NCBI RefSeq assembly: GCF_028705895.1 | Contig: NZ_JAQWCQ010000014.1 | Span: 609-64,608 of the forward strand | Reading direction: 5' to 3' | From: Massilibacteroides sp. | GTDB taxonomy: Bacteria > Bacteroidota > Bacteroidia > Bacteroidales > Tannerellaceae | Length of the DNA: 64,000 nt | Shown: piece after piece, positions 2,968 through 50,311 of the stretch | Layout of the letters: the number at the start of each line of letters is the position of its first letter | Numbering within the stretch: the first letter of the stretch is position 1 | The notes under the pieces: model-generated | Databases searched by the model: none | What the model saw: the letters and a program-made list of their open reading frames with translations, nothing else | What the model was told of the DNA's origin: nothing | Program-made: the position numbers and the translations under genes

Positions 2968-3795
2968 TTATTCTAAATCGAAGAGTGTGTAATCGGCTGA
3001 GGGGAAGTCTTTGATTATTTCTTTGGTAATAGTATCGGGAGTGATTACGAATGTGGTGGAAAGGATTTCTGCTTCTATGGGGTTGGCTGTCTTTACTGAA
3101 ACGATCTTTTTTCTTTCAAGGTAATGGCTGGTGTGAGGATCTATTATATGTTTAGGATGTGTGGGGGTATTGCCGGAAGTGGAAAGGCTACTGTCTTTTA
3201 AATTAACAATGTGTAGTGTTTCTTTCGGCTTGTATGGATTCTCTATCCCGATTGGCCAGGTATCTCCATAGGGGTGAGTGCCGATTCCTAAAACTGAGCT
3301 GTTCCCAAAGTTTATTAATGCACACTGAATATCATGACGTATTACTATCTGCTTAATTTTAGCTAAGGCATATCCCTTACCTAAAGCTCCCAAATCGAGT
3401 TCTGTTTCGTTGGCCGTAAATGCGATTGTTTGGGTTTTAGTATCTAACAGAACTGTATTATAGTCTTTCAGGGTAATGTCAAAATATCCTTTGGTTAGTG
3501 TATGATATCGTTTGCAATCAATCAAAAGTTGCCATAATTCATCGCTTACTTTTATCGGTTGCCGGCTTGCCGCTTTATTTATCTTATAAAGTTCACTCTC
3601 GGGGTTAAACTTACTGAATAGACTTTCTAAGCGACAAGTTTCTGCAAGTATTTCTTCCCAGCAAGACTCTGCGCTCTCTTGTCGGCTGTCCACTATCAAT
3701 ACATCCAACCTTGTCCCCATCAGTTTTACTGCCCAGCCATGTAGTAAGTTGGCTGCTTTGTTATACGTAAAATGTGAATCGGGGATAGGTTGCAT
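2968..3795 (-). CDS. apbE: FAD:protein FMN transferase (ApbE family), no recognisable signal peptide
   Basis: 275-aa ORF with ApbE-type motifs in order: KLMGT, FSKFNPESELYKIN, TKGYFDIT, LDLGALGKGYA, WPIGIENP, STSGN, HIIDPHT. Confidence 0.75.
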   Translation of the reverse strand: MQPIPDSHFTYNKAANLLHGWAVKLMGTRLDVLIVDSRQESAESCWEEILAETCRLESLFSKFNPESELYKINKAASRQPIKVSDELWQLLIDCKRYHTLTKGYFDITLKDYNTVLLDTKTQTIAFTANETELDLGALGKGYALAKIKQIVIRHDIQCALINFGNSSVLGIGTHPYGDTWPIGIENPYKPKETLHIVNLKDSSLSTSGNTPTHPKHIIDPHTSHYLERKKIVSVKTANPIEAEILSTTFVITPDTITKEIIKDFPSADYTLFDLE

Positions 3796-3807
3796 CTGTT
3801 TGTGGGA

Positions 3808-4050
3808 TTAGCCTTTCTTTTTGAAAAAAGTCTTTTTAATTAAGGCAAATAGTAATCTGAGAACTAATAATAGTCCGTAGATAGCTATGCTAAGGATAAA
3901 AACCCATAAAAGTTGGGTGTACAACTCTTTAAACTCTGTTTTATAAATAATGATGGAGGCAAGATTCAGTAGAAATGTAAAAACGAAGCAAGCTATCCAA
4001 ATCTTTATTTCTGTCAGTTGCCTTTTAGTTGTTATTGTGATATCTTTCAT
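3808..4050 (-). CDS. Small membrane protein (two hydrophobic helices), unknown function
   Basis: 80-aa ORF packed between the ApbE-like gene and the oxidoreductase gene (12-13 nt gaps). It has two long hydrophobic segments and a basic C-terminus (KKTFFKKKG). No family recognised. Confidence 0.4.
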   Translation of the reverse strand: MKDITITTKRQLTEIKIWIACFVFTFLLNLASIIIYKTEFKELYTQLLWVFILSIAIYGLLLVLRLLFALIKKTFFKKKG

Positions 4051-4063
4051 TGTGCAATAATTC

Positions 4064-5362
4064 TTACAAGTAGGGAATTACATATTCTTGAGGGAATTCA
4101 AGTACTCTTTTTTCTTCCATCGCTTTATTCCCAAGCAATGCTAATATGGATGAATAGTAAGCTTCTTCAACCAGCATAGGCATAGATTTACCGGTAATTA
4201 CGGCAGTACAAAAAGAGGAAACAAGTTCTAAAGACCCGTCATCAGCGGCTCCGGTTGTATTTGATCCGTCATGCGTTTTTATATGGTCTAATATCGGCTC
4301 ACCTTTGGTCGTAGATGCTGTTTCCGGTACCCAACTTGGTCCGGCAAAAGAAACATTGTCGAAAATATTATGCTCTATCTGATTAATCAGTTGTTGTATT
4401 CCCGGGGCAGGTTTCGGTTCTTCCTTATAAAGAAGACCCTGACTCAATTCTAATGTCCCTTTGTTTCCCAGAATCTGTTCGTCCATCCCGTAATGCTTAT
4501 TGGAAATGATGGATTCGAAAGTCATTCTCAAACCGTTTGGATAATGATAAATAACGCTGACACTATCAAAAACCTCGCGACCGTCTTTCCAGAAGATAAT
4601 ATCACCAAAACCGGTGATATAATCCGGTAGAGATTTATAGAGCCAGGTTCCCATCTGAAGTTGGTGAGCCCCTAATTCAGTCATCAGTCCACCCGAACTC
4701 TCACGATATAGCCTCCAGTTTATTTGTTTTTCTAACGAAGGTTCGGGTACAGGCCTTCTCCAGTCGTTATTTCTGTACCAGAAATTTCTAATATCAACAA
4801 CCTCTCCGATTTCTCCCTGATGAATAAGTTCCATTGCCTTCAAATACTTCGGATCGAATAACCGTTGTAATCCAATATAAAGAACCTTTCCTGATTCTTT
4901 ATAAACATCATACATCTCCTTGCATTGTTCGATTGTTCTGGCCATAGCCTTTTCACAAAAGACATGTTTCCCGGCTTTCAATCCTGCTATTGTTATAGGA
5001 GCATGTTCATGCAAAGGAGCAGCAATCAGAATACCATCCACGTTTTTATCCGCAATAGCTTCGTGATAATTCTTATACTGCTTCGCCTTGGGACAAAGGG
5101 CAGCTGCATTGTCTAAATGCGGTTGATATATATCACACAATGCAACAATTTCCGCATGTTTAATCTTAAGTAAATGATTAATGTGATAAAGCCCTCTCGA
5201 GCCTGTTCCGATAATAGCCAAACGAGCTTTTTGTCCTTCAATCAGGTTCTTCTCGTTAGCGTTAGATTGAAAAAAGGGAAAGGAGGATAAGACTAATCCT
5301 CCACCACTCAGAATCCCTACATTTTTAATAAAATCTCTACGTGTCAACAAATCTGTATTCAT
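4064..5362 (-). CDS. Gfo/Idh/MocA-family oxidoreductase with twin-arginine (Tat) signal
   Basis: 432-aa ORF. N-terminus is LTRRDFIKNVGILSGGG (Tat consensus). It has a Rossmann start RLAIIGTGSRG and a family-typical GKHVFCEKAMA motif. Confidence 0.85.
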   Translation of the reverse strand: MNTDLLTRRDFIKNVGILSGGGLVLSSFPFFQSNANEKNLIEGQKARLAIIGTGSRGLYHINHLLKIKHAEIVALCDIYQPHLDNAAALCPKAKQYKNYHEAIADKNVDGILIAAPLHEHAPITIAGLKAGKHVFCEKAMARTIEQCKEMYDVYKESGKVLYIGLQRLFDPKYLKAMELIHQGEIGEVVDIRNFWYRNNDWRRPVPEPSLEKQINWRLYRESSGGLMTELGAHQLQMGTWLYKSLPDYITGFGDIIFWKDGREVFDSVSVIYHYPNGLRMTFESIISNKHYGMDEQILGNKGTLELSQGLLYKEEPKPAPGIQQLINQIEHNIFDNVSFAGPSWVPETASTTKGEPILDHIKTHDGSNTTGAADDGSLELVSSFCTAVITGKSMPMLVEEAYYSSILALLGNKAMEEKRVLEFPQEYVIPYL

Positions 5363-5364
5363 TA

Positions 5365-6699
5365 CTAATAAGTCATTTTTTTCTTTTTAGGCGTCCAAGT
5401 TAGAATTTTATATCCATAAAAAGCGAAAAAAATCAGATAAATATAACATGGAATCAAAATCCAGTATGCTTTTTGTAAACTCCAGATATCCGCATAATAG
5501 CCGTAGATAATCGGCATAATTGCATTTCCACTTAGCCCCATAATTAATAAAGAAGAACCTACTTTGGTAAATCGGCCTAATCCATGTATTGAAAGTGGCC
5601 ATATGCCTGCATAAATCAAAGAATTTGGAAGTCCCAATGCACACAAGAACCAAATAGAAAGATTACTTGCGTGTCCGAGAACAACCACTTCTTTATTTAC
5701 AAGTATTATTGCGATGGAGAAAATCAAGCCCAACGAGCAACAAACTTGTAAAGCTCTTGTTTGCGAAATAAAACGGGGTATAAGAAAAATACCGGCCATA
5801 TAACCAATGATCGTGGCCGTCAGCGTATAAGAAGGGAAGGTTTTTGCTTCAAATAAGTCCATCCCCATTGATCCGGCGTAACTTATAACGGTGTCGATTG
5901 CAACAACCTGCGTGCCAACGTGCAGGAAAAGAGCTACCGCGCCTAAGATCAGATAAGGGAATTGCATTATTGATGTCTTGTGTGTTTCAGAGCCGGTTTC
6001 CTTATTTGTCTCTTCCGGATTAATCTCGGGAAGAACGGAGTAACGTATATAAATTCCGAATGCTAAAAGCCCGGCAGACAGAATAGCATAAGGCTTTATC
6101 ACACGTCTGATCAGTTCATCTAACATCATGTTTTTCGAAACTTCATCTAACGTTCCCGAATCTAAAAGAGTAAACATTTCACTATCTGTGACACGAAGCA
6201 CAACGGCGGCAAAGATTAATGGAGATATAATACCGGCAAATTTATTACATATCCCCATTATGCTTATTCGCCTTGCTGCACTTTCGATCGGCCCGATAAT
6301 AGTAATGTACGGATTAGCCGCAGATTGTAGAATGGTAAGTCCCGCTCCGATAACGAATAATCCGGTTAGAAATATCCAATAGGTACGGGCAAGAGCCGCA
6401 GGGATAAATAATGCCGCTCCCACCGACATACAGATGAAACCATACATTATACCTCGCTTATAACCGATCTTATTTAACAAATAAGCTGCCGGTATAGACA
6501 AACAGAAATAAGCAATATAAAATGCAAAGGCTACGAAATAGGACTCGAAATGAGTCAGCTCACATGCAATTTTGAAATAAGGTATCAGAATCGCATTTAC
6601 CCACGAAACCAATCCGAAAATAAAAAACATGATTCCGATAATAACAATAGCGGCTATCGTATTTCGTTTACTGCCTAATTGATTTTGCACTGGTTCCAT
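5365..6699 (-). CDS. MFS sugar:H+ symporter of the FucP/GluP/NagP (glucose-galactose porter) family; context suggests a GlcNAc/hexosamine importer
   Basis: 444-aa polytopic ORF that aligns by eye along its length to FucP/GluP-type transporters (e.g. GAGLTILQSAANPYITIIGP). It lies between the oxidoreductase genes, downstream of nagA/nagB in the same operon. Confidence 0.8.
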   Translation of the reverse strand: MEPVQNQLGSKRNTIAAIVIIGIMFFIFGLVSWVNAILIPYFKIACELTHFESYFVAFAFYIAYFCLSIPAAYLLNKIGYKRGIMYGFICMSVGAALFIPAALARTYWIFLTGLFVIGAGLTILQSAANPYITIIGPIESAARRISIMGICNKFAGIISPLIFAAVVLRVTDSEMFTLLDSGTLDEVSKNMMLDELIRRVIKPYAILSAGLLAFGIYIRYSVLPEINPEETNKETGSETHKTSIMQFPYLILGAVALFLHVGTQVVAIDTVISYAGSMGMDLFEAKTFPSYTLTATIIGYMAGIFLIPRFISQTRALQVCCSLGLIFSIAIILVNKEVVVLGHASNLSIWFLCALGLPNSLIYAGIWPLSIHGLGRFTKVGSSLLIMGLSGNAIMPIIYGYYADIWSLQKAYWILIPCYIYLIFFAFYGYKILTWTPKKKKMTY

Positions 6700-6748
6700 G
6701 TAGAGTCTGTATTTGTTTTTATAGTTAGTAATAGCTTAAAAGAGAATA

Positions 6749-8089
6749 TTATAATTTCATTTCCCAGCCTTTTTCATACTCTCTGCTCCAGTATTCGATT
6801 GCTTCAGCATCTCGTAGGATACGCCCATTAGCAGGATCAATCCGTAAAGAACGACCTACGCGTTGCGAAATATTACCTAATTGCATGGATAATGTGCTTT
6901 TATGACCGGAAACGATATCAGAATTAAGTTGTGCGCTCTTTCTTATTCCGTCAAAGAAATTATTAATATGTAACGCATCTAAGCTTTCTGCCGGATTCAT
7001 CAGATTACGAGGATCAATGGCTAACTTACTGTTTTGTTCTTTTATTACGTTGTTTTTTTCGTCGAATATTTTATAACTATCACCTCCTGTAATTAACAGA
7101 CTTCCTTTATCTCCATAGAATAAAGCGCCGACGCTGCTATCTTCTATCGTTCTTCCGTTACAACTACGTCCTTCCCAAGAAATTGATTTGGTATTACCAT
7201 ATTCCAGATTAATAATCTGTGTATCCGGCGTTTCCCAGTCGTCTTTATAATAATAACGTCCGCCTGCAGAATTAACCATCGTCGGATATTCCAGATCCAT
7301 TCCCCAACGAAGGATATCCACCATATGTGTTCCATTATTAAGAGATTCGGCTGTTCCCCAACGCCAGAACCAATGCCAGTTGTAATGGATATAATTATCT
7401 TTAAAGGCTACACGTGGCGCAGGTCCCTGCCATAAATCCCAGTCCAACCATTCGGGAACGGGAACTTCTTTTCCGATACCGATCGACGGTCTGTTATTGG
7501 TGTACCAGGCCTTTCCAAAATGCACATTGCCGATTACTCCTTCTTTTATGGACTGAATCCCTTCAATGACATTCGGCCACGAACGCCTTTGATTTCCCAT
7601 TTGTAACACCCGTTTGTATTTAGCCACACCCTGTATCAATATTTCGCCTTCTTCCGGAGCATAACTACAGGGTTTCTCCAGATATACATGCTTTCCAGCC
7701 TGCATCGCTAATAAAGCAGCCGGAGCATGCCAGTGATCGGGAGTCGCAATGACAACAGCATCAATGTCTTTATTCTCTAAAGCCTTTCTGAAATCTTTTT
7801 CGCCTTTGGGTTTACTTTTTTGTACTTTGGCTACTTCGTCACAACATTTGGCTATGGCACGATTGTCAACATCGCAGATACAGGAAACTTCGCAACCTTC
7901 TTGCTTTGCAAAATTAACGGCTAAAGCTCTACCTCTGGAATTAACACCTATGACGGCAACTCTTATTTTATCGTTTGCGCCTTTTATGTTTGTATAACTT
8001 TTGGCACTTACTTCATTTACAAACCCTCCAAGAGAGAGAGTTGATACTCCCAGCGCTGCTGTTTTTATAAAATCACGTCTTGTACTCAT
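6749..8089 (-). CDS. Gfo/Idh/MocA-family oxidoreductase with twin-arginine (Tat) signal
   Basis: 446-aa ORF. N-terminus is STRRDFIKTAALGVSTLSLGG. It has a Rossmann start IRVAVIGVNSRG, then ATPDHWHA and GKHVYLEKPCS motifs. Confidence 0.85.
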   Translation of the reverse strand: MSTRRDFIKTAALGVSTLSLGGFVNEVSAKSYTNIKGANDKIRVAVIGVNSRGRALAVNFAKQEGCEVSCICDVDNRAIAKCCDEVAKVQKSKPKGEKDFRKALENKDIDAVVIATPDHWHAPAALLAMQAGKHVYLEKPCSYAPEEGEILIQGVAKYKRVLQMGNQRRSWPNVIEGIQSIKEGVIGNVHFGKAWYTNNRPSIGIGKEVPVPEWLDWDLWQGPAPRVAFKDNYIHYNWHWFWRWGTAESLNNGTHMVDILRWGMDLEYPTMVNSAGGRYYYKDDWETPDTQIINLEYGNTKSISWEGRSCNGRTIEDSSVGALFYGDKGSLLITGGDSYKIFDEKNNVIKEQNSKLAIDPRNLMNPAESLDALHINNFFDGIRKSAQLNSDIVSGHKSTLSMQLGNISQRVGRSLRIDPANGRILRDAEAIEYWSREYEKGWEMKL

Positions 8090-8126
8090 GGTAATTATAT
8101 TTTAATCGTTGGTATTCTGTCTGGTA

Positions 8127-8897
8127 TTATAAATAAGTTACTTCTTCCAATAGACTTGCACTATCCTTGTCCAAAAAAAGAATGGTCTGTTCTTTAGTTC
8201 TTAGGATAGAAGCCGGACAACGTTCCGAAATGTCACCATTCAATGTCTCATATACGGCTTTTGCCTTCCCTTTATAGGGTACTATACAATAGATGTAAGG
8301 TACGGATAATATTGTTGGGATGGTCAGCGTAAGTGCGTGCGTGGGCACTTTTGATATATCATCAAAACACTTATCATTGACTTGTTGCTGCCTGCACATG
8401 TGGTCCAACTCAACGGCCTTAACTACTTCCTGATCCTGGAAGTCGGCAACATGCGGATCATTAAACGCAATATGTCCGTTCTCTCCAATCCCAATACATG
8501 CAATATCAATAGGGTATTCTTTTAAAAGAGCTGTATAACGTTTGCATTCCTCGTTTAAAACATTACTCCCATCCAAATAAAACACGTTTCTGAATTTAAG
8601 CTGACCAAAAAGTTCTCTTTTCAGAAAATTACCGAATCGTTGAGGGGCGTTTTGTTCTAAACCAATATATTCATCTAAATGAAAAGCATTTACTCTATTC
8701 CAATCAATGTCTTTGTAATTCACCAATTGTCTGAAAAACTCTGATTGAGAGGGGGCGGCGGCAAACAATGCGTTGATCGTGTCTTTCTTTTCTAAAAGAG
8801 TCTTCATTCTCTCAGCAACCTGTGCTGCAGCAGCAATAGACATCTCTTTTGTTGTCGGGTATATCCTTACGTCCAACTTATCTTTAGTAATAACCAT
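8127..8897 (-). CDS. nagB: Glucosamine-6-phosphate deaminase/isomerase
   Basis: 256-aa ORF with the NagB/6-phosphogluconolactonase fold signature GIGENGHIAFNDP, immediately downstream of nagA. Confidence 0.85.
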   Translation of the reverse strand: MVITKDKLDVRIYPTTKEMSIAAAAQVAERMKTLLEKKDTINALFAAAPSQSEFFRQLVNYKDIDWNRVNAFHLDEYIGLEQNAPQRFGNFLKRELFGQLKFRNVFYLDGSNVLNEECKRYTALLKEYPIDIACIGIGENGHIAFNDPHVADFQDQEVVKAVELDHMCRQQQVNDKCFDDISKVPTHALTLTIPTILSVPYIYCIVPYKGKAKAVYETLNGDISERCPASILRTKEQTILFLDKDSASLLEEVTYL

Positions 8898-8902
8898 GTT
8901 TC

Positions 8903-10105
8903 TTATTTGTTTTTTGTATAAATTATTTCCCCTCCAACAATTGTATCTTGAACTGCAATGTCAGAACCAAAGATCACTAAATCTGCTTCTTTCCCAACTT
9001 CGAGTGTCCCTTTTCTTTTTTCAATGCCTAAAATACGTGCCGGATTCTGAGTCATCATCTTGATTGCTTCCGGTAATGATATGCCTGCCTGAGTAATCAT
9101 GGTGCGTATTAGCCTGTCAGCTGTTGCAACACTTCCCGCAAAGGCACTTTTGTCCGGTAGTTTAGCCACTCCATCTTCCACGATTACTTTTTGTCCTTTT
9201 TCTTTGCTTCCCAATAAATATTCCCCGTCAGGCATTCCGGCAGCTCTCATAGAATCTGTACATAAAGCAATCTTATCGTGTGCTTTAAACTTGCAGACAA
9301 ATTTTAGTAAGGGTTCGGGAACATGTATTCCGTCTGCAATGATTTCAACAGACATGTCATCGATCAGATAAGCAGCCTCGATCGCCCCCGCATAACGGAA
9401 AGCATTGCGACGAGTTATTGTTGACATGCAAGAATAGAGATGAGTTACGTGCGTAAACCCGCAATCGAATGCCTTTACTACTTCCTCGTAAATAGCATTT
9501 GTATGTCCAAGCGATACAAGGATATTTCTTCGATGTAGCTCTTTGCCCAATTCCAAAGCCCCTTCTAATTCAGGAGCAATACTCCATCGAACAATATCCT
9601 TTCCTCCGAGTTCTAACAACTCATTGTATTCCTCGGGGTGCGGGTTGCGAAGATATTTAGGATCCTGAGCTCCCCGTTGTGCATAAGAAAAATAAGGCCC
9701 TTCCAAATGCAATCCCAGAAAAGCAGCTCCCTTTGTGTTTTCTGCTTTTGCTTTTCGGTACACTTCGAGAGTCCTGACCAACTCTTCTTTCGTGCTTGCC
9801 AATGTAGTAGGAGTAAGGCTTGTTGTTCCATACCGGGCATGCGTTTGTGCAGCTTTGCAATAAGCTTCAACAGTATTATCCATGAAGTCATGTCCACCTG
9901 CACCATGTGTGTGTATGTCGATAAACCCGGGCGAAACATAATTCCCCTTTGCATCTATCTTTCTATCAGATGTCCTGCATTCTACACATTCTCCTTCCCC
10001 AATATGGGTAATAATACCTTTGCTACATATAATATATCCCGAATTGATAATCCTGTCAGGAAGAATTAATGTTGCGTTTTCTATGATAAGTCGTTTGTCC
10101 AGCAT
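8903..10105 (-). CDS. nagA: N-acetylglucosamine-6-phosphate deacetylase
   Basis: 400-aa amidohydrolase with the metal-binding start GFIDIHTHGAGGHDF and NagA-like length and organisation. It is coupled to nagB by a 5-nt gap. Confidence 0.9.
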   Translation of the reverse strand: MLDKRLIIENATLILPDRIINSGYIICSKGIITHIGEGECVECRTSDRKIDAKGNYVSPGFIDIHTHGAGGHDFMDNTVEAYCKAAQTHARYGTTSLTPTTLASTKEELVRTLEVYRKAKAENTKGAAFLGLHLEGPYFSYAQRGAQDPKYLRNPHPEEYNELLELGGKDIVRWSIAPELEGALELGKELHRRNILVSLGHTNAIYEEVVKAFDCGFTHVTHLYSCMSTITRRNAFRYAGAIEAAYLIDDMSVEIIADGIHVPEPLLKFVCKFKAHDKIALCTDSMRAAGMPDGEYLLGSKEKGQKVIVEDGVAKLPDKSAFAGSVATADRLIRTMITQAGISLPEAIKMMTQNPARILGIEKRKGTLEVGKEADLVIFGSDIAVQDTIVGGEIIYTKNK

Positions 10106-10183
10106 AATGTTCAGATCAGTAACCAGACTTCAAAAATATATGTTTGAGTTTTCTCTACAGGGATAGAATGCGAATGAAAGTTC

Positions 10184-11368
10184 TCATATGCCGTCAATTT
10201 CAGTGAAATCTTTCTTCTCTTTCTTGTATAGTTTTCGGTATTCAGCAGGAGATATCGACTTATATTTACGGAAAATGCGGGAAACATTCTTGTAATCGTC
10301 AAATCCTGATTGAATTGCAGCATCCGGCAGGTGAAGATCTGTACTCAAAAGAAGTTTAGTGAAATGATTGATCCGGTGGTCGAGTACGCATTGATAAATC
10401 GACGTTCCGATTGTGTCTTTAAAACGTTTCTCAAGAACTCGCCTTGAATAAGGAACAAGATCCACCAGATCATCCACCGAAATAGATTTGTTGAAGTTCT
10501 CTTTGATATGATTCAGAATCTTCTGAAGATATTCGTCAGAAACAGCATATTTCTCTGTTGAAGCTCTGTTTTCAATATATAAAGGTTCCACCACAATATT
10601 AAAAGCTTCTTTCGTTCCGCATTTAATCGATTGATACAATTGTTTAGCAGCCTGGTATCCTCCATTTTCCACATCTAAAACAATAGAAGAAAGCGTAGGT
10701 GAGGAGAGATTGCATAATAGTTCATCATTATCTACTCCGAGTAATGCAATTTCATCCGGAATACTAATATTTGTAATATTACATGTTTCCGATATTTGTA
10801 ATGCGTAATAATCATCGCAAGCAAAAAGGGCAACAGGTTTGGGTAGAGACTCCAGCCATTTACCGATTTGTTTTGTGTTGAACAACCATTCTTTTGTGTT
10901 CGGATTCTTATTCTCCAATATATCACATTGATATCCGGCTTTCTCGATCCGGTCTTTGTAACCCGCTCCTCTTTCTCGTGACCAGATCGCATTTTGGTAT
11001 CCGTAATAAGCAAAATTCCGGAAACCTTTATTCAGGAAAAAATCGGCAGCCATCACTCCGGTATTGTAATAATCCCCTGTCAGGTTAGATATATACTTAC
11101 TCCGTTCATGGTAATTCTGTACGATAATAGGAATATCAAGCGTATTAAGCTCTTCCAGATTAATGTCTCTCAACTGGGCAATGATAGCATCCGCTTTCCA
11201 TTTTTTCGCAAAAGACACTACCGCATCTTCGCCGTGCATCATTTGATAATACACCGGCATTCTCAGGAAAGACCAGGTTCCAACCTCTCTTGAATAGCGG
11301 ATGATACCCTCTAATAATCGCCTGCTATACCCACTGGAAAAATCTGTAAGAACAAGTATCTTCAACAT
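10184..11368 (-). CDS. XylR-like regulator: periplasmic-binding-protein-fold sugar sensor domain fused to an AraC-type HTH
   Basis: 394-aa ORF. The N-terminal ~270 aa look LacI/PBP-like (LFACDDYYALQ, LLGVDNDELLC). The C-terminal ~100 aa form an AraC HTH (SVDDLVDLVPYSRRVLEKRFK...YKNVSRIFRKYKSISPAEYRK). Confidence 0.8.
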   Translation of the reverse strand: MLKILVLTDFSSGYSRRLLEGIIRYSREVGTWSFLRMPVYYQMMHGEDAVVSFAKKWKADAIIAQLRDINLEELNTLDIPIIVQNYHERSKYISNLTGDYYNTGVMAADFFLNKGFRNFAYYGYQNAIWSRERGAGYKDRIEKAGYQCDILENKNPNTKEWLFNTKQIGKWLESLPKPVALFACDDYYALQISETCNITNISIPDEIALLGVDNDELLCNLSSPTLSSIVLDVENGGYQAAKQLYQSIKCGTKEAFNIVVEPLYIENRASTEKYAVSDEYLQKILNHIKENFNKSISVDDLVDLVPYSRRVLEKRFKDTIGTSIYQCVLDHRINHFTKLLLSTDLHLPDAAIQSGFDDYKNVSRIFRKYKSISPAEYRKLYKKEKKDFTEIDGI

Positions 11369-44160: not shown

Positions 44161-44190
44161 TAAGAAATATGAATTATAGATAAATATAGG

Positions 44191-44236
44191 AAGAAGAGAT
44201 TGGTGATGTTATGTTGCCTCTCTCTTCTTTATTTAT
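44191..44236 (+). terminator. Possible intrinsic terminator after the GH2 gene
   Basis: AAGAAGAGA (44191..44199) pairs with TCTCTTCTT (44221..44229) across a 21-nt loop, followed by a T-rich tail TATTTATT. Confidence 0.3.
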
Positions 44237-44362: not shown

Positions 44363-45940
44363 ATGACAAATAAAAATTCTTATTCAAACTCTCAAAAGAA
44401 AAAAAGCTTTTTTCGCGGAAAAACTTTCATTCTACTATTAGGCGTCGGGCTTGGTGTTGCTGCGATGATCGGTATTTATCAAACTTCAGTTTATTTTTCG
44501 ACAGACGAATCCTGTATGATGTGTCATGTGCATCCCCATGCAGAGGAAACATGGAAAATAGGGAAACATGTCAATAACAGCAGTGGCGTTAAGGTTCATT
44601 GTGTAGATTGCCACCTTCCTCCAAAACATGATACTTGGGCGCACTATACAGCCAAGGCTAAATTAGGAGCTAAGGATCTTTGGGGATATTTAACGAAAGA
44701 CAGTGCTGACTTCGATTGGGAAACTAAATCTCAATTGGAACATGCCATTAAGTTTATCCCTAATGAATCCTGTAAGGAATGCCATCAGAATTTATTTCCC
44801 GAAGGAATTAACAATGACGGTATTACAGCCCATCTTTATTATGAAGAAAATGAAAAAAAATTAGACCTGCAATGTATTAGTTGCCACCTTGACGCAGGAC
44901 ATTATAATCCGGATTATACACACGGACAATTAGAAGGAATTCCGACAATGTCATCAGCTACTGTAGATACCAGTCTCTTCTTTAAAGAATCAACTGCGGT
45001 AACTTCCTTTAGTGATTATGTTGAACAGATTCCGGGCACGATGATTTCTTTCAAAATGGTTGCTGTTCCGGGTGGATCTTTTAAAATGGGTAGTTCTTCA
45101 AAAGAAGCATTCCATAAAGCAGATGAAGCTCCCGTTCGTAATGTAACTCTTACTCCTTTCTTTATGGCTGAAGTTGAAGCTACGTGGGATCAGTATTGGG
45201 CATTCTACGGACAAACAATGAGTGAGGGGCGTACTCCTCCCGAAACAGTTTATGCCAATAATAGTAATCCTGAAGTAGATGCGATTTCGGGTCCAACTCC
45301 TCCGTTTGGATTCCCAGACCAAGGATGGGGTGGAGGTGATCGCCCTGCAATTACGATGACGCATTATGCTGCGGAAACATTTTGCCAGTGGCTTTCACAA
45401 AAAACAGGAAAGAAATACCGTTTGCCTACAGAAGCTGAATGGGAATATGCTGCTCGTGGCGGTGTTGAAACTCCGTATTTTTTTGAAGGAAATCCAAAAG
45501 ACTTTTCGGATGAAGGTTTCTGGCGCAAACTTTTCAGTGCTAAAACCGAACCGATCAGTAATTATATCATTTATAATAAGAATAGTAAGAATAAGACACA
45601 AGAACCATCTGCCGTGCAGGCTAATCCGTTCGGCTTAAAGAATATGTTAGGAAACGTGATGGAATATTGTGCGGACAAATATGATCCTGAAGCCTATTCG
45701 AAAACAGATGAGAATGTGACAAATCCATTGGTGACGAGTGGTGACGAATGGGTTGTAAGAGGAGGTAACTATACTTCCGATGCTGCGGATGTGAGAAGTG
45801 CTGCCCGTGATTATTCAAAACATGACATCTGGCTGAAGACCGACCCGCAACAACCTAAAAGTATCTGGTGGTATTCAGACATTCGCGGAATCGGCTTCCG
45901 TGTAGTTTGTGAACCGGATGCATCAATCAATGCAAATTAA
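44363..45940 (+). CDS. Fusion protein: membrane-anchored NapC/NirT-type tetrahaem cytochrome c (aa ~1-190) plus an FGE/SUMF1-fold domain (aa ~225-520)
   Basis: 525-aa ORF with a TM helix at aa 21-39. It has four CxxCH motifs: CMMCH (aa 51, nt 44513), CVDCH (aa 80), CKECH (aa 137) and CISCH (aa 171). FGE-fold blocks are VAVPGGSFKMGS, YRLPTEAEWEYAARGG, GNVMEYCAD, VVRGGNY (nt 45752) and GFRVVCE. Confidence 0.8.
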   Translation: MTNKNSYSNSQKKKSFFRGKTFILLLGVGLGVAAMIGIYQTSVYFSTDESCMMCHVHPHAEETWKIGKHVNNSSGVKVHCVDCHLPPKHDTWAHYTAKAKLGAKDLWGYLTKDSADFDWETKSQLEHAIKFIPNESCKECHQNLFPEGINNDGITAHLYYEENEKKLDLQCISCHLDAGHYNPDYTHGQLEGIPTMSSATVDTSLFFKESTAVTSFSDYVEQIPGTMISFKMVAVPGGSFKMGSSSKEAFHKADEAPVRNVTLTPFFMAEVEATWDQYWAFYGQTMSEGRTPPETVYANNSNPEVDAISGPTPPFGFPDQGWGGGDRPAITMTHYAAETFCQWLSQKTGKKYRLPTEAEWEYAARGGVETPYFFEGNPKDFSDEGFWRKLFSAKTEPISNYIIYNKNSKNKTQEPSAVQANPFGLKNMLGNVMEYCADKYDPEAYSKTDENVTNPLVTSGDEWVVRGGNYTSDAADVRSAARDYSKHDIWLKTDPQQPKSIWWYSDIRGIGFRVVCEPDASINAN

Positions 45941-45970: not shown

Positions 45971-47365
45971 ATGAAAAAAGAAAACAGTATCAGTAGGAGA
46001 TCATTCCTGAAAAGTTCTGCAATGGCAGGTGCTCTTGGTGCAATTGGCACAGGCGGAGCAGCAACAGTATTAACTTCTTGTGGTGGTGGAGCTGCGGAAA
46101 GTGCTTCTGCTACAAAACCGCTTAAAGAACCTGGAACATATTATATTCCTGAATTGCCTGATTTAGCAACAGACGGACAAGAATTGAAAGCTGGTGTTAT
46201 TGGTTGCGGCGGTCGTGGTTCTGGTGCTGCATTTGACTTCTTAAATGCCGCAAACGGAGTAACTATCGTTGCGCTTGGAGATACTTTCCAGGAAAGAGTC
46301 GATGGATTAGCTGATAAATTGAAAAAAGAAAAGAATATTGATGTTCCTGCTGACAAGCGTTTTGTTGGTCTGGATGCTTATAAACAAGTAATCGAAAGTG
46401 GTGTAGATGTAGTTATCGTTGCAACTCCTCCTTGTTTCCGCCCGACTCATTTCCAGTATGCAACGGAAAAAGGCAAACATTCATTCCTGGAAAAACCTAT
46501 CTGTGTAGATCCTGTTGGATATAAAACAATTGTAGCAACAGCTAAACAAGCTCAGGCTAAAGGTCTTCGTGTAGTTACAGGAACACAACGTCATCATCAA
46601 CGTAACTATGTTGAGTCTTACAAAAAGATCATGGAAGGTGCAATTGGTGAGATTACAGGCGGTGTGGTTTACTGGAACCAGAATATGCTTTGGTATCGCG
46701 AACGTCAACAAGGCTGGAACGATTGTGAATGGATGATTAAGGACTGGGTAAACTGGAAATGGCTGTCAGGAGATCATATCGTAGAACAACATGTTCATAA
46801 TATTGATGTGTTTACATGGTTTAGCGGTCTTAAACCTGTAAAAGCTGTTGGCTTTGGTTCTCGTCAACGTCGTCTGACCGGAGACCAATATGATAATTTC
46901 AGCATTGACTTTACGATGGAAAATGGAATTCACCTGCACAGTATGTGTCGTCAGATTGACGGTTGTGTAAATAATGTAAGTGAATTTATTCAAGGAACAA
47001 AAGGTTCTTGGTCAACAGCTAATGGTGAAACAGTGATCAAAGACCTGGCTGGAAATGAAATCTGGAAGTTTGACAAGGAAGCAGAAAAAGCAAGCTTTAA
47101 ACAAACAAATCCGTATGTACTTGAACACGTAAACTGGATTAACAGCATTCGTGGTAAGAAAGAAATAGAACAAGCTTCTGAAACTGCCATTTCTAATATG
47201 GCTGCAATCATGGGACGTGAATCAGCTTATTCTGGCGCTGAAGTAACATGGGATGCAATGAGTGCTTCTAATCTTGATTATATACCTAAAGATTTGAATC
47301 TTGGAAAGATGGATATGAGCGGTTTCGTTGTTCCTGTTCCGGGAAAACCTATTGACAAGAAATAA
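45971..47365 (+). CDS. Gfo/Idh/MocA-family oxidoreductase, Tat-exported lipoprotein
   Basis: 464-aa ORF with the Tat motif SRRSFLK followed by the lipobox LTSCGG. It has a Rossmann start LKAGVIGCGGRG, then ATPPCFRPTHFQYATEKGKHSFLEKP. Confidence 0.85.
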   Translation: MKKENSISRRSFLKSSAMAGALGAIGTGGAATVLTSCGGGAAESASATKPLKEPGTYYIPELPDLATDGQELKAGVIGCGGRGSGAAFDFLNAANGVTIVALGDTFQERVDGLADKLKKEKNIDVPADKRFVGLDAYKQVIESGVDVVIVATPPCFRPTHFQYATEKGKHSFLEKPICVDPVGYKTIVATAKQAQAKGLRVVTGTQRHHQRNYVESYKKIMEGAIGEITGGVVYWNQNMLWYRERQQGWNDCEWMIKDWVNWKWLSGDHIVEQHVHNIDVFTWFSGLKPVKAVGFGSRQRRLTGDQYDNFSIDFTMENGIHLHSMCRQIDGCVNNVSEFIQGTKGSWSTANGETVIKDLAGNEIWKFDKEAEKASFKQTNPYVLEHVNWINSIRGKKEIEQASETAISNMAAIMGRESAYSGAEVTWDAMSASNLDYIPKDLNLGKMDMSGFVVPVPGKPIDKK

Positions 47366-47373
47366 TTATAATT

Positions 47374-48300
47374 ATGTCACTCAATAGAAGAAACTTTTTA
47401 AGAACCGGTCTTGTAGGTGCTGCAGCAACAGCTGTCGGCACCTCATGGGCGGGCTGTACTTCTGCTCCGGCAAGTCAAAGCAGTGCTGAAACGACCAAAA
47501 GTAAGGCTGAATTAAAGCTTTCTTTTCAGGAAGGTATAGCACCAGGTAAAGACTTAAATGAAAAGTTCGATCTTTTCGAAAAATTAGGAATTGTCGGTTT
47601 TGAACCGGGCGGTAGAGGTTTAGCTGATCGTGTAGGTGAAATAAAAGATGCCTTAAAAGGACGTAATATAAAGGTTAGTGCTATTTGTGCCGGTTTCCAG
47701 GGCTTTATGCTTGCCGAAGATGAAGCAGTGCGTAACCAATGTCGTGATACTATGCAGGAAATCATTACTGCTGCCGGAGAACTCGAGTCAACGGGAGTAA
47801 TTATTGTACCTGCATTTAATCATCAAACGCCGGCGATGCCGCATACTCAGGAAACGCGTGATTTCCTTTGTAAATGGTTTGACGAACTGGGTACTTTTGC
47901 TGCACAACATGGTACGACTGTAATCTTTGAGCCGCTAAACCGTAAAGAAGCGTTTTATTTGCGTCAGGTAGCTGATGCAGCATCAATTTGCCGTGATATC
48001 AACAATCCGGGAGTTCGTTGTATGGGCGACTTCTGGCATATGACTTGGGAAGAAACCTGTGATATGGGAGCATTCCTTTCTGCCGGAGAATACTTGCAGC
48101 ATGTTCATATTGCAAGTCGGAAACGTAGAAGTATGCCAAGTGAAGATGGAGAAGCGGATAACTACATCACCGGTTTCAAAGGCCTGAAGATGTTAGGATA
48201 TGATAAATACGTAAGTTTTGAATGCGGCTGTCAGGGTGACCGTAATGTGGTTGTTCCTGCAGCAGTAGAACTTTTACGCAAACAATGGGAAGAAGCATAA
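47374..48300 (+). CDS. Xylose-isomerase-like TIM-barrel (sugar phosphate isomerase/epimerase family) protein, Tat-exported lipoprotein
   Basis: 308-aa ORF with the Tat motif NRRNFLR and lipobox WAGCTS. Family-typical metal-site blocks are VIFEPLNRKEAFYL, MGDFWHMTWEE, HVHIASRKRR and VSFECG. Confidence 0.8.
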   Translation: MSLNRRNFLRTGLVGAAATAVGTSWAGCTSAPASQSSAETTKSKAELKLSFQEGIAPGKDLNEKFDLFEKLGIVGFEPGGRGLADRVGEIKDALKGRNIKVSAICAGFQGFMLAEDEAVRNQCRDTMQEIITAAGELESTGVIIVPAFNHQTPAMPHTQETRDFLCKWFDELGTFAAQHGTTVIFEPLNRKEAFYLRQVADAASICRDINNPGVRCMGDFWHMTWEETCDMGAFLSAGEYLQHVHIASRKRRSMPSEDGEADNYITGFKGLKMLGYDKYVSFECGCQGDRNVVVPAAVELLRKQWEEA

Positions 48301-48301
48301 T

Positions 48302-49015
48302 ATGCCGTTGATATATTCAAATATGCAATTGAGTGAGGTTGTGGAAGAACACACCTCACTCATTCCTGTTATTAACAGGTTTGGTATCCGTCTTGGATTA
48401 GGGGATAAGTCGGTAAAAGATATCTGTAGTGAACATCAAATAGATCTGGATTTTCTACTTGTGGTGATCAATACTTTCCTTAATGAAGAATATTTTCCGG
48501 AAAAGAGGCTGCAGACATTCCACACTTCGCAGATTATTGATTACCTAACCAAAACAAATTCGGACTATCAGAGACACCAATTACCTAATATCGAACGTCA
48601 TCTGGGATCATTCATATCACTTAGTGCAGCTTCCGGAAACAATTCACTTGCGGTAATTGGTAAATTCTTTGCTTCATTTAAAGCCAAGTTAACCGACAGG
48701 ATAGAAAAAGATACGAATGAATGGTTTCCGTATTGCCTGAGCCTGAGTGAGAAGCTGGGAAAGTTGCAGACAGATAAACAAGAAGCTTTTATCCTGAATT
48801 TACCAGAACATAAAATAGACAATTCGTTAGAAGCCTTGCTTACCGACCTGAAAAGTTTGATGATCAAACATATCTCGGGAGAATACAATGAAAATCTATG
48901 TTATGCGGTGATCTTCGCAATCAGCAGTCTGGAAAAAGATATACGCCAACAAGATCGTATTCGCTTCCGTATATTAGCTCCGATGGTATCTGCAATGGAA
49001 AAGCTAAGTTTATAA
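48302..49015 (+). CDS. Hemerythrin-like / RIC (ScdA/YtfE)-like domain protein, function unknown
   Basis: 237-aa ORF whose ATG lies 1 nt after the upstream TAA. The N-terminus (MQLSEVVEEHTSLIPVINRFGIRLGLGDKSVKDICSEHQIDLDFLL) resembles the ScdA_N domain. The block IIDYLTKTNSDYQRHQLPNIERHL resembles the YtfE hemerythrin start, but with several His positions replaced. Confidence 0.35.
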   Translation: MPLIYSNMQLSEVVEEHTSLIPVINRFGIRLGLGDKSVKDICSEHQIDLDFLLVVINTFLNEEYFPEKRLQTFHTSQIIDYLTKTNSDYQRHQLPNIERHLGSFISLSAASGNNSLAVIGKFFASFKAKLTDRIEKDTNEWFPYCLSLSEKLGKLQTDKQEAFILNLPEHKIDNSLEALLTDLKSLMIKHISGEYNENLCYAVIFAISSLEKDIRQQDRIRFRILAPMVSAMEKLSL

Positions 49016-49028
49016 TCTTCTCAATCTT

Positions 49029-49610
49029 ATGCACAAAAGTAAGCAAATAGCGATTATACTTACTGACACTTTACAAAGCGCCGGCCTTCAATCTATCCTT
49101 GTGGATTATTTCCCTCCTGTTTCAATCTCTGTTTTTTCTTCATTTAACAGAATGGAGGAAAACGGGACAGATCAATTTGATTATTTCTTTATTCCATCTG
49201 AAACCTTTGTGCTTTATTCCGAATTTTTTCTGCCTCGAAGAAATAAAACGATTGTTTTAACTTCAGACGGTGAAATGAAGGAAGCTGCCAATGTGCTTAC
49301 ATCGAACTTTTACCTTAACACAACAAACTCTCTCGAACTGATTATAGATCGTTTGCAACAATTATTCAGTTACGAAAGTAACGGTGCTGAAACAAATAAA
49401 GGCTTATCTATACGCGAGACAGATGTGCTGCAGCTGATCGTAAAAGGTATTACGAACAAGGAAATTGCAGACAAACTAAATATTAGTTTGAATACGGTGT
49501 TGAGTCATCGTAAAAACATAACATCCAAATTAGGCATTAAAACAGTTTCAGGATTAACTTATTATGCTATAATGAACGGACTTATCTCGGCTGACGAAAT
49601 AGAACTGTAA
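49029..49610 (+). CDS. LuxR/FixJ-type HTH regulator with an atypical (pseudo-receiver-like) N-terminal domain
   Basis: 193-aa ORF with the C-terminal LuxR HTH LSIRETDVLQLIVKGITNKEIADKLNISLNTVLSHRKNITSKLGIKT. The N-terminal ~125 aa has receiver-like beta-alpha rhythm (IAIILTDTLQSAGL) but lacks the canonical acidic DD pair. Confidence 0.7.
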   Translation: MHKSKQIAIILTDTLQSAGLQSILVDYFPPVSISVFSSFNRMEENGTDQFDYFFIPSETFVLYSEFFLPRRNKTIVLTSDGEMKEAANVLTSNFYLNTTNSLELIIDRLQQLFSYESNGAETNKGLSIRETDVLQLIVKGITNKEIADKLNISLNTVLSHRKNITSKLGIKTVSGLTYYAIMNGLISADEIEL

Positions 49611-49660
49611 CTTTTTCTTTCTTCACGTTGTTATATGTCAGTCATACCAAAGAGTACTAC

Positions 49661-50311
49661 ATGGCCAGAGAACGGAAATATACAAAAAATGAAGAACTAT
49701 GGAATGCGTCTTCGCATGCATTCGGGATTCTACTTGGAGTGGTTGCCGGATATTATTTGCTCAAAGCTGCTTCCGGAAATAGTTGGGCGGTAGGTAGCGT
49801 CTTGGTTTACCTGTTTGGTATGTTAACCTGTTATGTACTTTCTACCTCTTATCATGCAACAGTAAATGAAAAAAGAAAACAATTGTTGCAGAAATTCGAC
49901 CATGCCTCCATTTATCTTCATATAGCAGCCTCCTATACTCCCTTTACATTGGTTACTTTACGAAACGAAGGTTATTGGGGATGGGGTATCTTTGCCTTTG
50001 TCTGGCTGGCAGCGATTATCGGAGTAGTTCTCAGTTTTCGGAAATATGAAAAGCACAATTATTTCGAGACTATTTGTTATATCGTGATGGGTTGCTCCAT
50101 ACTTGTCGCATTGAATCCGCTGTTAGCTGCATTTACAGCTACGGGTAAAATAGAGGCCTTCTATTGGCTGATTGCCGGCGGAGTATCTTATATCGTAGGA
50201 GCATTATTCTATTCCTTTGCGAAATTACGTTATATGCACACCGTTTTTCATTTCTTCGTTTTGGGTGGAAGTGTGTGCCATATCTTGGCTATTTATTTAG
50301 TTGTCGCTTGA
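49661..50311 (+). CDS. Hemolysin III / PAQR-family membrane protein
   Basis: The ORF-track start is TTG 49628. ATG 49661 (MARERKYTKNEELWNASSHAFG) is preferred. It has seven hydrophobic segments and the motifs NASSHAFG, YHA, DHASIYLHIAASYTPF and HTVFHFFVLGGSVCH. Confidence 0.85.
   Translation: MARERKYTKNEELWNASSHAFGILLGVVAGYYLLKAASGNSWAVGSVLVYLFGMLTCYVLSTSYHATVNEKRKQLLQKFDHASIYLHIAASYTPFTLVTLRNEGYWGWGIFAFVWLAAIIGVVLSFRKYEKHNYFETICYIVMGCSILVALNPLLAAFTATGKIEAFYWLIAGGVSYIVGALFYSFAKLRYMHTVFHFFVLGGSVCHILAIYLVVA

Follow-up and report, generated by a model that had tools for sequence, protein, structure and literature searches.

Oxidation of glycosides to 3-keto-glycosides in the periplasm, with the electrons passed through a c-type cytochrome to the respiratory chain, is known from LacABC of Caulobacter and from ThuAB of Agrobacterium and Sinorhizobium, which are mutually unrelated proteins and, as described, have neither a subunit resembling formylglycine-generating enzyme (FGE) nor a NapC/NirT anchor (PMC8121099). 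In Bacteroides thetaiotaomicron, BT2156–BT2160 specify a periplasmic sugar pathway that combines a sugar-isomerase-type TIM barrel with BT2158, an oxidoreductase of the GFO/IDH/MocA family (hereafter GFO) exported by twin-arginine translocation (Tat). That operon contains no cytochrome or FGE-like gene; the electron acceptor of BT2158 was described as "as yet unidentified", and the authors deemed cytochrome-c-dependent dehydrogenases unlikely in Bacteroides and proposed a second sugar as acceptor (PMC8121099). Here we analyse a 64,000-nucleotide stretch of a Massilibacteroides sp. genome (assembly GCF_028705895.1, contig NZ_JAQWCQ010000014.1, forward-strand positions 609 to 64,608; hereafter the window), in which one gene fuses a tetrahaem NapC/NirT-type cytochrome to an FGE-like domain and heads an operon with a Tat-exported GFO gene. 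With a probability of about 60%, we propose from sequence analysis that the fusion protein is the electron-transfer subunit, anchored in the membrane, of a sugar or glycoside dehydrogenase that works in the periplasm and is linked to quinone, and that it carries flavin mononucleotide (FMN) on Thr312. The function proposed for the locus is the one established for LacABC and ThuAB, and what sets the locus apart from both is its dehydrogenase, a GFO enzyme exported through Tat and predicted to carry bound NAD(P). On this reading the fusion belongs to a periplasmic dehydrogenase coupled to quinone, and its putative flavin-carrier domain is without precedent. A full-text literature search returned no published account of the fusion, of the FGE-like subfamily to which its C-terminal domain belongs or of flavinylation of an FGE fold, and the statement of the original prediction, made from the letters of the window alone, that the fusion has no characterized example holds in that literature.

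The N-terminal part of the protein was predicted to combine one transmembrane helix and four CxxCH motifs in a NapC/NirT layout, and a hydropathy scan, a regular-expression search and the Pfam profile PF03264 all agree with this. PF03264 matches aa 21-184 (E = 5.5e-24; 85.3 bits against a cutoff of 24.1) over profile positions 9-173 of 174, and the 525-aa translation contains no CxxCH beyond the four haem c motifs listed in Table 1. The original prediction had made conservation of these motifs a point to be checked in homologues: all four are kept in 123 of 125 full-length homologues, which argues that they are not there by chance. The sole solved relative of the haem domain is the quinol dehydrogenase NrfH (PDB 2J7A). 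Scores against the models of named NapC/NirT orthologue groups stay below cutoff (TIGR02161, 40 versus 311; NrfH TIGR03153, 67 versus 134; TorC TIGR02162, 52 versus 478), indicating a member of the PF03264 family that lies outside every named orthologue group tested. Because a basic cytoplasmic tail precedes the transmembrane helix, the rest of the protein is expected on the periplasmic side, with the predicted tetrahaem module anchored at the periplasmic face of the membrane by that helix. TorC/DorC and NrfH/CymA share this arrangement of an N-terminal transmembrane anchor, a periplasmic tetrahaem NapC/NirT module and electron exchange with the quinone pool, and TorC further resembles the fusion in carrying an extra C-terminal domain for one specific periplasmic redox partner. 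In place of a fifth haem domain, the fusion has an FGE fold that is predicted to bind FMN covalently. Because its proposed partner, a GFO dehydrogenase, depends on NAD(P), electrons are expected to flow into the quinone pool, unlike in TorC and NrfH.

The second domain had been assigned to the FGE-sulfatase fold, and PF03781 recognizes it over aa 231-484 (E = 6.8e-39). An AlphaFold2 model of the fusion protein, built from a 101-sequence alignment, has a predicted local distance difference test score above 90 across most of aa 210-490, the FGE core. Confidence is low for a loop at aa ~287-319, for the tail at aa ~490-510 and for the haem domain, the last because haems were absent from the modelling; in the model, the loop and tail appear flexible on a confident core. 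Searching structures with Foldseek gave FGE (2Q17, 1Z70 and 6MUJ) at probability 1.0 and target-normalized TM-scores of 0.6-0.73 to FGE and PvdO. These were the top matches, followed by Treponema variable protein, PorK, ToxD and EgtB; no flavoprotein was among the Foldseek matches. The core motif RLPTEAEWE is common to the fusion protein and other FGE-fold proteins. The active site of FGE is lost: the segment RGGNYTSDAADVRSAARDY, which starts at R466 (nt 45758), has no Cys within it, alignments to solved FGEs end at RGGNY/RGGSY just ahead of the FGE Cys pair, and the pair is found in this loop in none of 14 diverse subfamily members aligned. The earlier observation that the catalytic cysteines are replaced from nt 45758 onward is upheld by these alignments, which point to a C-terminal FGE-fold domain without the FGE copper site. 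Named FGE-fold families were rejected on NCBIfam cutoffs (GldK, 93 against 350; PvdO, 83 bits against 500; EgtB, 51 against 360; GldJ, 47 against 458), among them GldJ and GldK, to which the original prediction had likened this domain.

Profile searching places the domain in a distinct subfamily of at least about 8,000 members at E <= 1e-30, chiefly stand-alone proteins of Pirellulales, Thermogutta and Gemmataceae (Planctomycetota) that are annotated as "formylglycine-generating enzyme family protein". Distant full-length fusions, at 40-48% identity, came from an exhaustive search of cluster representatives. Elsewhere the domain stands alone behind a signal peptide, is fused to ApbE (PF02424) or to PSCyt1, a cytochrome c domain of planctomycetes, or follows an FG-GAP-type N-terminus, and FGE-like domains have been joined independently to other c-type cytochromes (P0243, with PSCyt1; L097 and L106, with CxxCH motifs). 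A hydrophobic, signal-like N-terminal stretch is present in 89 of 108 stand-alone members. In the fusion protein the FGE-like domain sits after the transmembrane anchor and a haem c module of the kind that matures in the periplasm, and it too is predicted to be extracytosolic. Members end in a tail signature, LRSAxR...DPQxPKSxWW...GFRVV, that true FGEs lack.

The subfamily is tightly paired with GFO genes. In a sample of 80 species-representative Bacteroidales loci, a Tat-GFO gene follows the fusion gene in all 78 whose contig continues beyond it, and the TIM-barrel gene comes next in nearly all loci of sufficient length. Outside this sample, a GFO gene was the next gene in five of the five distant members first examined, and one lies within 3 kb in 20 of 28 subfamily loci as against 0 of 51 control loci (Fisher p = 1.2e-12); two more subfamily loci, in which the GFO gene overlaps the open reading frame (ORF) call of the FGE-like protein, are not counted. 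The controls were other FGE-type loci from the same metagenome scan with a domain profile, and flanking DNA was more extensive in them than in the loci of the subfamily. A twin-arginine signal is present in 27 of the 29 GFO homologues of these loci, counting adjacent partners and extra copies. Co-occurrence of the fusion with Tat-GFO and TIM-barrel genes, which the original prediction had singled out for checking, is thereby borne out, and its proposal that the haem module wires a periplasmic GFO enzyme to menaquinone fits both the Bacteroidales loci and all distant relatives examined.

A second recurrent neighbour is ApbE, the flavin transferase. Known ApbE substrates (the FMN_bind domain of NqrC, RnfG and NosR, DUF2271 and DUF3570) are extracytosolic, cluster or fuse with ApbE, end their acceptor site in Thr or Ser, and are presumed to act in electron transfer, at times combined with cytochromes (PMC8238504); the FGE-like subfamily resembles them in these respects. 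An ApbE gene lies within 3 kb in 11 of 28 subfamily loci and in none of the 51 controls (Fisher p = 2.4e-6), and ApbE was adjacent or fused in three of the five distant members first examined. According to precomputed Pfam hits, all three planctomycete long contigs carry a divergent ApbE gene followed by FGE-like and GFO genes, and in three Dysgonomonas genomes a lipoprotein ApbE is encoded directly upstream of the fusion gene. Proteins that fuse ApbE to the FGE-like domain form seven distinct clusters from four data sources, at 59-64% identity and with the predicted acceptor site kept in all, which argues that this fusion is not an artefact. Adjacent ApbE genes accompany 13 of 19 RP/KP sites, 5 of 8 GP sites and 0 of 8 SGAT sites; ApbE beside non-canonical sites is what would be expected if these needed a dedicated transferase, with lineage as a confounder of the comparison. 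Méheust et al. (2021) recognized DUF2271 and DUF3570 through ApbE clustering, ApbE fusions and a conserved motif, after which both were confirmed biochemically, and they noted that other ApbE substrates were still to be identified (PMC8238504). The flavin-carrier reading of the FGE-like domain follows the same three signals (PMC8238504). The domain goes unmentioned in the flavinylation literature searched, where the silence of the ApbE survey, in those portions of it that were covered, is weak evidence.

The third signal is the acceptor motif. In the ApbE consensus, D-x-x-[S/T]-G-A-[S/T], FMN sits on the last residue (PMC12052999). At one aligned position in the loop, subfamily members carry D-A-[IV]-[ST]-[G/R]-[A/P]-[T/S]-x-P-[YWF], a motif confined to the subfamily: none of about 100 large multi-FGE-domain proteins that the search of cluster representatives also returned contains it. 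In 14 of 14 diverse members and 32 of 32 metagenomic members the Asp is unchanged and a Thr or Ser ends the motif, and D[AG][IV][ST]GPTPPFG occupies the site in 78 of the 80 Bacteroidales loci. Several relatives read DAISGAT or DAITGAT at the aligned position, which is the exact canonical flavinylation consensus. With this DAxS/TxxT loop, the DPQxPKSxWW tail and the GFO and ApbE context, the fusion differs from FGE, PvdO, PorK, GldK and EgtB, and it is not a type IX secretion system component. It also differs from the known ApbE substrates, in that the fold of the subfamily (FGE/C-type-lectin-like) is unrelated to theirs and its sites mostly show Pro at position -1, preceded by Arg or Gly at position -2, where the consensus reads G-A. 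The GFO and TIM-barrel proteins were considered as alternative ApbE targets and rejected, with no flavinylation-like motif in the 29 GFO homologues or in the TIM proteins.

Tat-exported GFO dehydrogenases bring NAD(P) into a compartment that has no nucleotide pool, and how the cofactor is re-oxidized there is an open problem. NAD(P)H can give up electrons only in pairs and haems accept them singly; a flavin is for this reason the expected mediator. The original prediction contained no such two-electron/one-electron converter, which a flavin-bearing FGE-like domain would supply. In the mechanism that we propose, ApbE would attach FMN to Thr312 on the flexible loop, and the GFO enzyme, which would keep NAD(P) tightly bound during its export by Tat, would oxidize a sugar hydroxyl, probably to a 3-keto-glycoside. 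The tethered FMN would then take a hydride from the GFO-bound NAD(P)H, in the role that a second "substrate" plays in a ping-pong cycle such as the one run by Zymomonas GFOR, and pass its two electrons singly to the four haems. The haems would reduce menaquinone, with fumarate reductase or cytochrome bd re-oxidizing the menaquinol, and periplasmic sugar oxidation would in this way become respiratory, while the Tat-exported TIM-barrel enzyme would handle the keto-sugar by epimerization or elimination. Coupling the oxidation of a secondary alcohol to the reduction of menaquinone (about -74 mV) is thermodynamically downhill. For the subfamily as a whole, the odds are slightly better than even that it forms an unrecognized class of ApbE substrates, in which a tethered FMN re-oxidizes the NAD(P)H of Tat-GFO enzymes and electrons leave through c-type cytochromes, in Bacteroidota a fused NapC/NirT tetrahaem anchor, to quinones.

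Several observations weigh against this proposal. The site of the fusion protein, DAISGPT, has one mismatch to the consensus, Pro for Ala at -1, and because of this departure we infer its flavinylation rather than read it from a canonical match. Sites of the planctomycete branch read [T/S/A]-R-P-T, which limits family-wide conservation to the Asp and the terminal Thr. The subfamily and control loci compared in the Fisher tests are phylogenetically non-independent. The window, like 77 of the 80 Bacteroidales loci, lacks an ApbE gene next to the fusion gene, and the ApbE-like gene that the window does hold (Table 1), an uncertain candidate for the flavin transferase of the fusion protein, is 40 kb away, short and without an evident signal peptide; its orthology to the fusion-adjacent ApbE of Dysgonomonas is unsupported, with 0 BLASTP matches at 1e-3. 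The neighbouring Tat-GFO enzyme falls outside the glycoside 3-dehydrogenase family of BT2158 (24.6 bits on NF058561, whose cutoff is 750), and the proposed flow of electrons into menaquinone is derived from thermodynamics alone.

The non-canonical SGPT site and the lack of an adjacent ApbE gene in the window and in most Bacteroidales loci are also what one would expect if the FGE-like domain bore no cofactor and simply held the GFO enzyme near the haems, in the style of PorK/GldK or NirV, with electrons taking another route. The FGE fold is structural in PorK and GldK, which the domain matches weakly, and tight pairing of FGE-like and GFO genes would be equally expected. Such a docking or ligand-binding role, as the original prediction had suggested, leaves the recurrent ApbE clustering and the seven clusters of ApbE fusions unexplained. 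It does not account for the conservation of Thr/Ser within a flavinylation-type motif, of which some members have the canonical form, and it provides no mediator between a hydride-donating NAD(P)H and one-electron haems. We consider it unlikely that the domain is such a passive module; that account appears incomplete, and the ApbE association and the motif point to a redox-active one.

A flavin could also be consistent with electrons running the other way, from menaquinol through the haems to a GFO enzyme that reduces a periplasmic keto-sugar or other oxidized substrate. Characterized NapC/NirT proteins are quinol dehydrogenases that feed periplasmic reductases, and the PF03264 match assigns the fusion cytochrome to that family. 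GFO enzymes are moreover reversible, as illustrated by Zymomonas GFOR, which reduces fructose through bound NADPH (cited in PMC8121099). Reducing bound NAD(P)+ (~-320 mV) with menaquinol (~-74 mV) would be strongly uphill unless the potential of the cofactor were much shifted, and the sugar-uptake and catabolic setting, with its SusC/SusD pair, GH2 enzyme and keto-sugar-type TIM barrel, fits substrate oxidation. We regard reverse flow as improbable.

The presence of PvdO among the best matches of the domain (5HHA, E = 1.2e-15; TM-score 0.72), together with the NCBIfam naming of PvdO as a dihydropyoverdine dehydrogenase, raises the possibility that the FGE-like domain is itself catalytic, oxidizing a small periplasmic substrate with the haems as electron sink while the GFO enzyme works separately in the same pathway. 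The score against the PvdO model falls far below cutoff, subfamily alignments hold no invariant His or Cys able to form a metal site and no EgtB-type set of iron-site His residues, and strict pairing with GFO and ApbE genes is foreign to PvdO, all of which makes this very improbable. A genuine FGE (sulfatase maturase) fused to a cytochrome, for which only the PF03781 match and names in databases, for example 'formylglycine-generating enzyme required for sulfatase activity', speak, is effectively refuted, because neither catalytic Cys residue occurs in this protein or elsewhere in the subfamily, the gene conserved alongside is a GFO gene, and sulfatase homologues, as had been noted for the window, are absent from it and lie within 7 kb in only 2 of the 80 related Bacteroidales loci.

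The partner enzymes indicate what the proposed quinone-linked dehydrogenase might act on. The Tat-GFO enzyme retains the dinucleotide-binding GCGGRG motif and an EKP motif, and among solved structures it comes closest to inositol dehydrogenases and to the C-glycoside 3-oxidoreductase DgpA. The TIM-barrel enzyme is near-identical to PDB 3KWS (E = 2e-154), a structural-genomics 'putative sugar isomerase'; its closest characterized relative is the 3-keto-D-glucoside 4-epimerase 6WN6 (1.3e-20), and judging by these relatives it probably acts on the keto-sugar product. Planctomycete loci have a 3-keto-disaccharide hydrolase gene close by (L165). Together, the relatives of the GFO and TIM-barrel enzymes and the 3-keto-disaccharide hydrolases found nearby or fused to ApbE point to 3-keto-sugar chemistry. 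Both proteins have a lipobox-like Cys after the twin-arginine signal (..VLTSC in the Tat-GFO, ..SWAGC in the TIM barrel), and they may be Tat-exported lipoproteins kept at the membrane near the cytochrome.

Table 1. Positions of the fusion gene, its predicted functional elements and associated features in the window.
Feature	Position	Strand	Description	Basis
Fusion gene, tetrahaem NapC/NirT cytochrome and FGE-like domain	44363..45940	+	525 aa, ATG start	ORF and translation, Pfam
Transmembrane anchor	44423..44479	+	N-terminal, aa ~21-39, within a hydrophobic stretch at aa ~20-40	Hydropathy scan; model helix 20-45
Haem c motifs	44513..44887	+	CMMCH (aa 51), CVDCH (aa 80), CKECH (aa 137), CISCH (aa 171)	Regular expression
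FGE-fold domain, GFO/ApbE-linked subfamily	44999..45922	+	aa ~213-520	PF03781, alignment, model, Foldseek
Predicted ApbE flavinylation site	45278..45298	+	D306-A-I-S-G-P-T312; Thr312 (45296..45298) is the proposed FMN residue	
Loop in place of the FGE copper-binding Cys pair	45758..45808	+	RGGNYTSDAADVRSAAR, aa 466-482	Translation, PDB alignments
Tail signature	45842..45871	+	DPQQPKSIWW, aa 494-503; D494, P495, P498, S500 and W502 invariant	Two alignments
Tat-exported GFO/IDH/MocA oxidoreductase	45971..47365	+	464 aa	PF01408, PF22725, PF02894, PF10518
Tat-exported xylose-isomerase-like TIM-barrel enzyme	47374..48300	+	308 aa	PF01261, PF10518
Conserved ORF and LuxR-type regulator	48302..49610	+	237-aa ORF; regulator with GerE helix-turn-helix	Synteny in most of the 80 loci
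Terminator-like hairpin	~44190..44230	+	3' of the GH2 gene, U-rich tail; dG -20.2 kcal/mol, z = -4.8	0/200 shuffles as stable
ApbE-family gene	2968..3795	-	Beside two further Tat-GFO genes	PF02424, E = 2.9e-41

The organization of the operon agrees with the original prediction, which had placed the fusion gene at the head of a Tat oxidoreductase operon: PF10518 detects a Tat signal in both of the following products, whose genes come at the predicted spacings of 30 nt (fusion gene to Tat-GFO) and 8 nt (Tat-GFO to TIM barrel). The hairpin that it noted upstream is likewise found, folds stably (Table 1) and sets the cytochrome operon apart from the gene for a β-galactosidase-like enzyme of glycoside hydrolase family 2 (GH2). 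Also upstream are genes for a major facilitator superfamily (MFS) transporter, a SusC/SusD pair and a cytoplasmic GFO enzyme; the GH2 and cytoplasmic GFO genes vary across the 80 loci. A scan for sigma-70 promoters was uninformative (19 matches versus 17 expected), and the 200-nt gap upstream of the fusion gene contains no Bacteroides-type TAnnTTTG. Downstream of the TIM-barrel gene follow the 237-aa ORF, the LuxR-type regulator, an HlyIII/PAQR protein and a TonB-dependent receptor. The 237-aa product has no Pfam or PDB match, and matches an NCBIfam RIC/ScdA-like model weakly (5.9e-10). Going by synteny, this ORF and the LuxR-type gene appear to be accessory genes of the operon in Tannerellaceae, and they may be a sensor/regulator pair for it.

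Homologues of the fusion number at least 7,400, with both Pfam domains present in 120 of 120 among the matches listed, and their NCBI name says no more than "SUMF1/EgtB/PvdO family nonheme iron enzyme". They occur in Parabacteroides distasonis, P. goldsteinii, P. gordonii, Dysgonomonas, Tannerellaceae and a few Bacteroides and Prevotella, the nearest genome being that of Massilibacteroides vaginae (89% identity). The locus offers a concrete, testable answer to the question of how exported GFO enzymes have their cofactor re-oxidized, namely a flavin-haem wire to menaquinone. If this is correct, a new fold would join the few known ApbE substrates, thousands of genes could be re-annotated that now go under the wrong label of "formylglycine-generating enzyme" or "SUMF1/EgtB/PvdO nonheme iron enzyme", and the orphan structure 3KWS would gain a pathway context. 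Respiratory, NAD-dependent sugar oxidation in the periplasm would then extend to thousands of Bacteroidota and Planctomycetota, and gut Parabacteroides, Dysgonomonas and many Planctomycetota could conserve energy from it by anaerobic respiration.

Not every branch of the subfamily keeps the GFO partner. The FGE-like genes of L094 and L099, whose site reads DAISQPT with a long insertion, follow a TonB-dependent receptor gene, in L099 with a sulfatase gene next; those of L102 and L107 have DAVTAPS at the site, in L107 with a gene for a pyrroloquinoline quinone (PQQ) β-propeller next. These side branches have no GFO neighbour and depart from the pattern of the subfamily, and they keep the Thr/Ser; the FGE-like module may therefore serve other partners. 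At the other extreme, three distant Bacteroidota-like environmental fusion loci (L103, L104 and L105) surround a single cytochrome–FGE-like gene with two to five Tat-GFO genes, which suggests that one electron-transfer subunit is able to serve several dehydrogenases. The window itself holds a second cluster (2968..11368, minus strand) with the ApbE-family gene, Tat-signal GFO genes at 4064..5362 and 6749..8089, an MFS transporter gene, NagB-like and NagA-like genes and an AraC/PBP-type regulator. Because this cluster has no FGE-like gene of its own, its two Tat-GFO enzymes might share the cytochrome encoded at 44363.

The clade of planctomycete ApbE proteins to which the FGE-like fusions belong also contains fusions of ApbE to domains of 3-keto-disaccharide hydrolase (PF06439), PQQ dehydrogenase and alpha-L-fucosidase (P0498, P0503, P0506, P0501, P0474 and P0494), which suggests broader ties between flavinylation and periplasmic sugar oxidation. 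The HlyIII/PAQR (TrhA-like) gene just past the operon (49628..50311) has counterparts 2-3 kb from the trio of ApbE, FGE-like and GFO genes in L165 (2960..3622) and L166 (3251..3949), a recurrence that could be coincidence or could reflect a conserved accessory gene.

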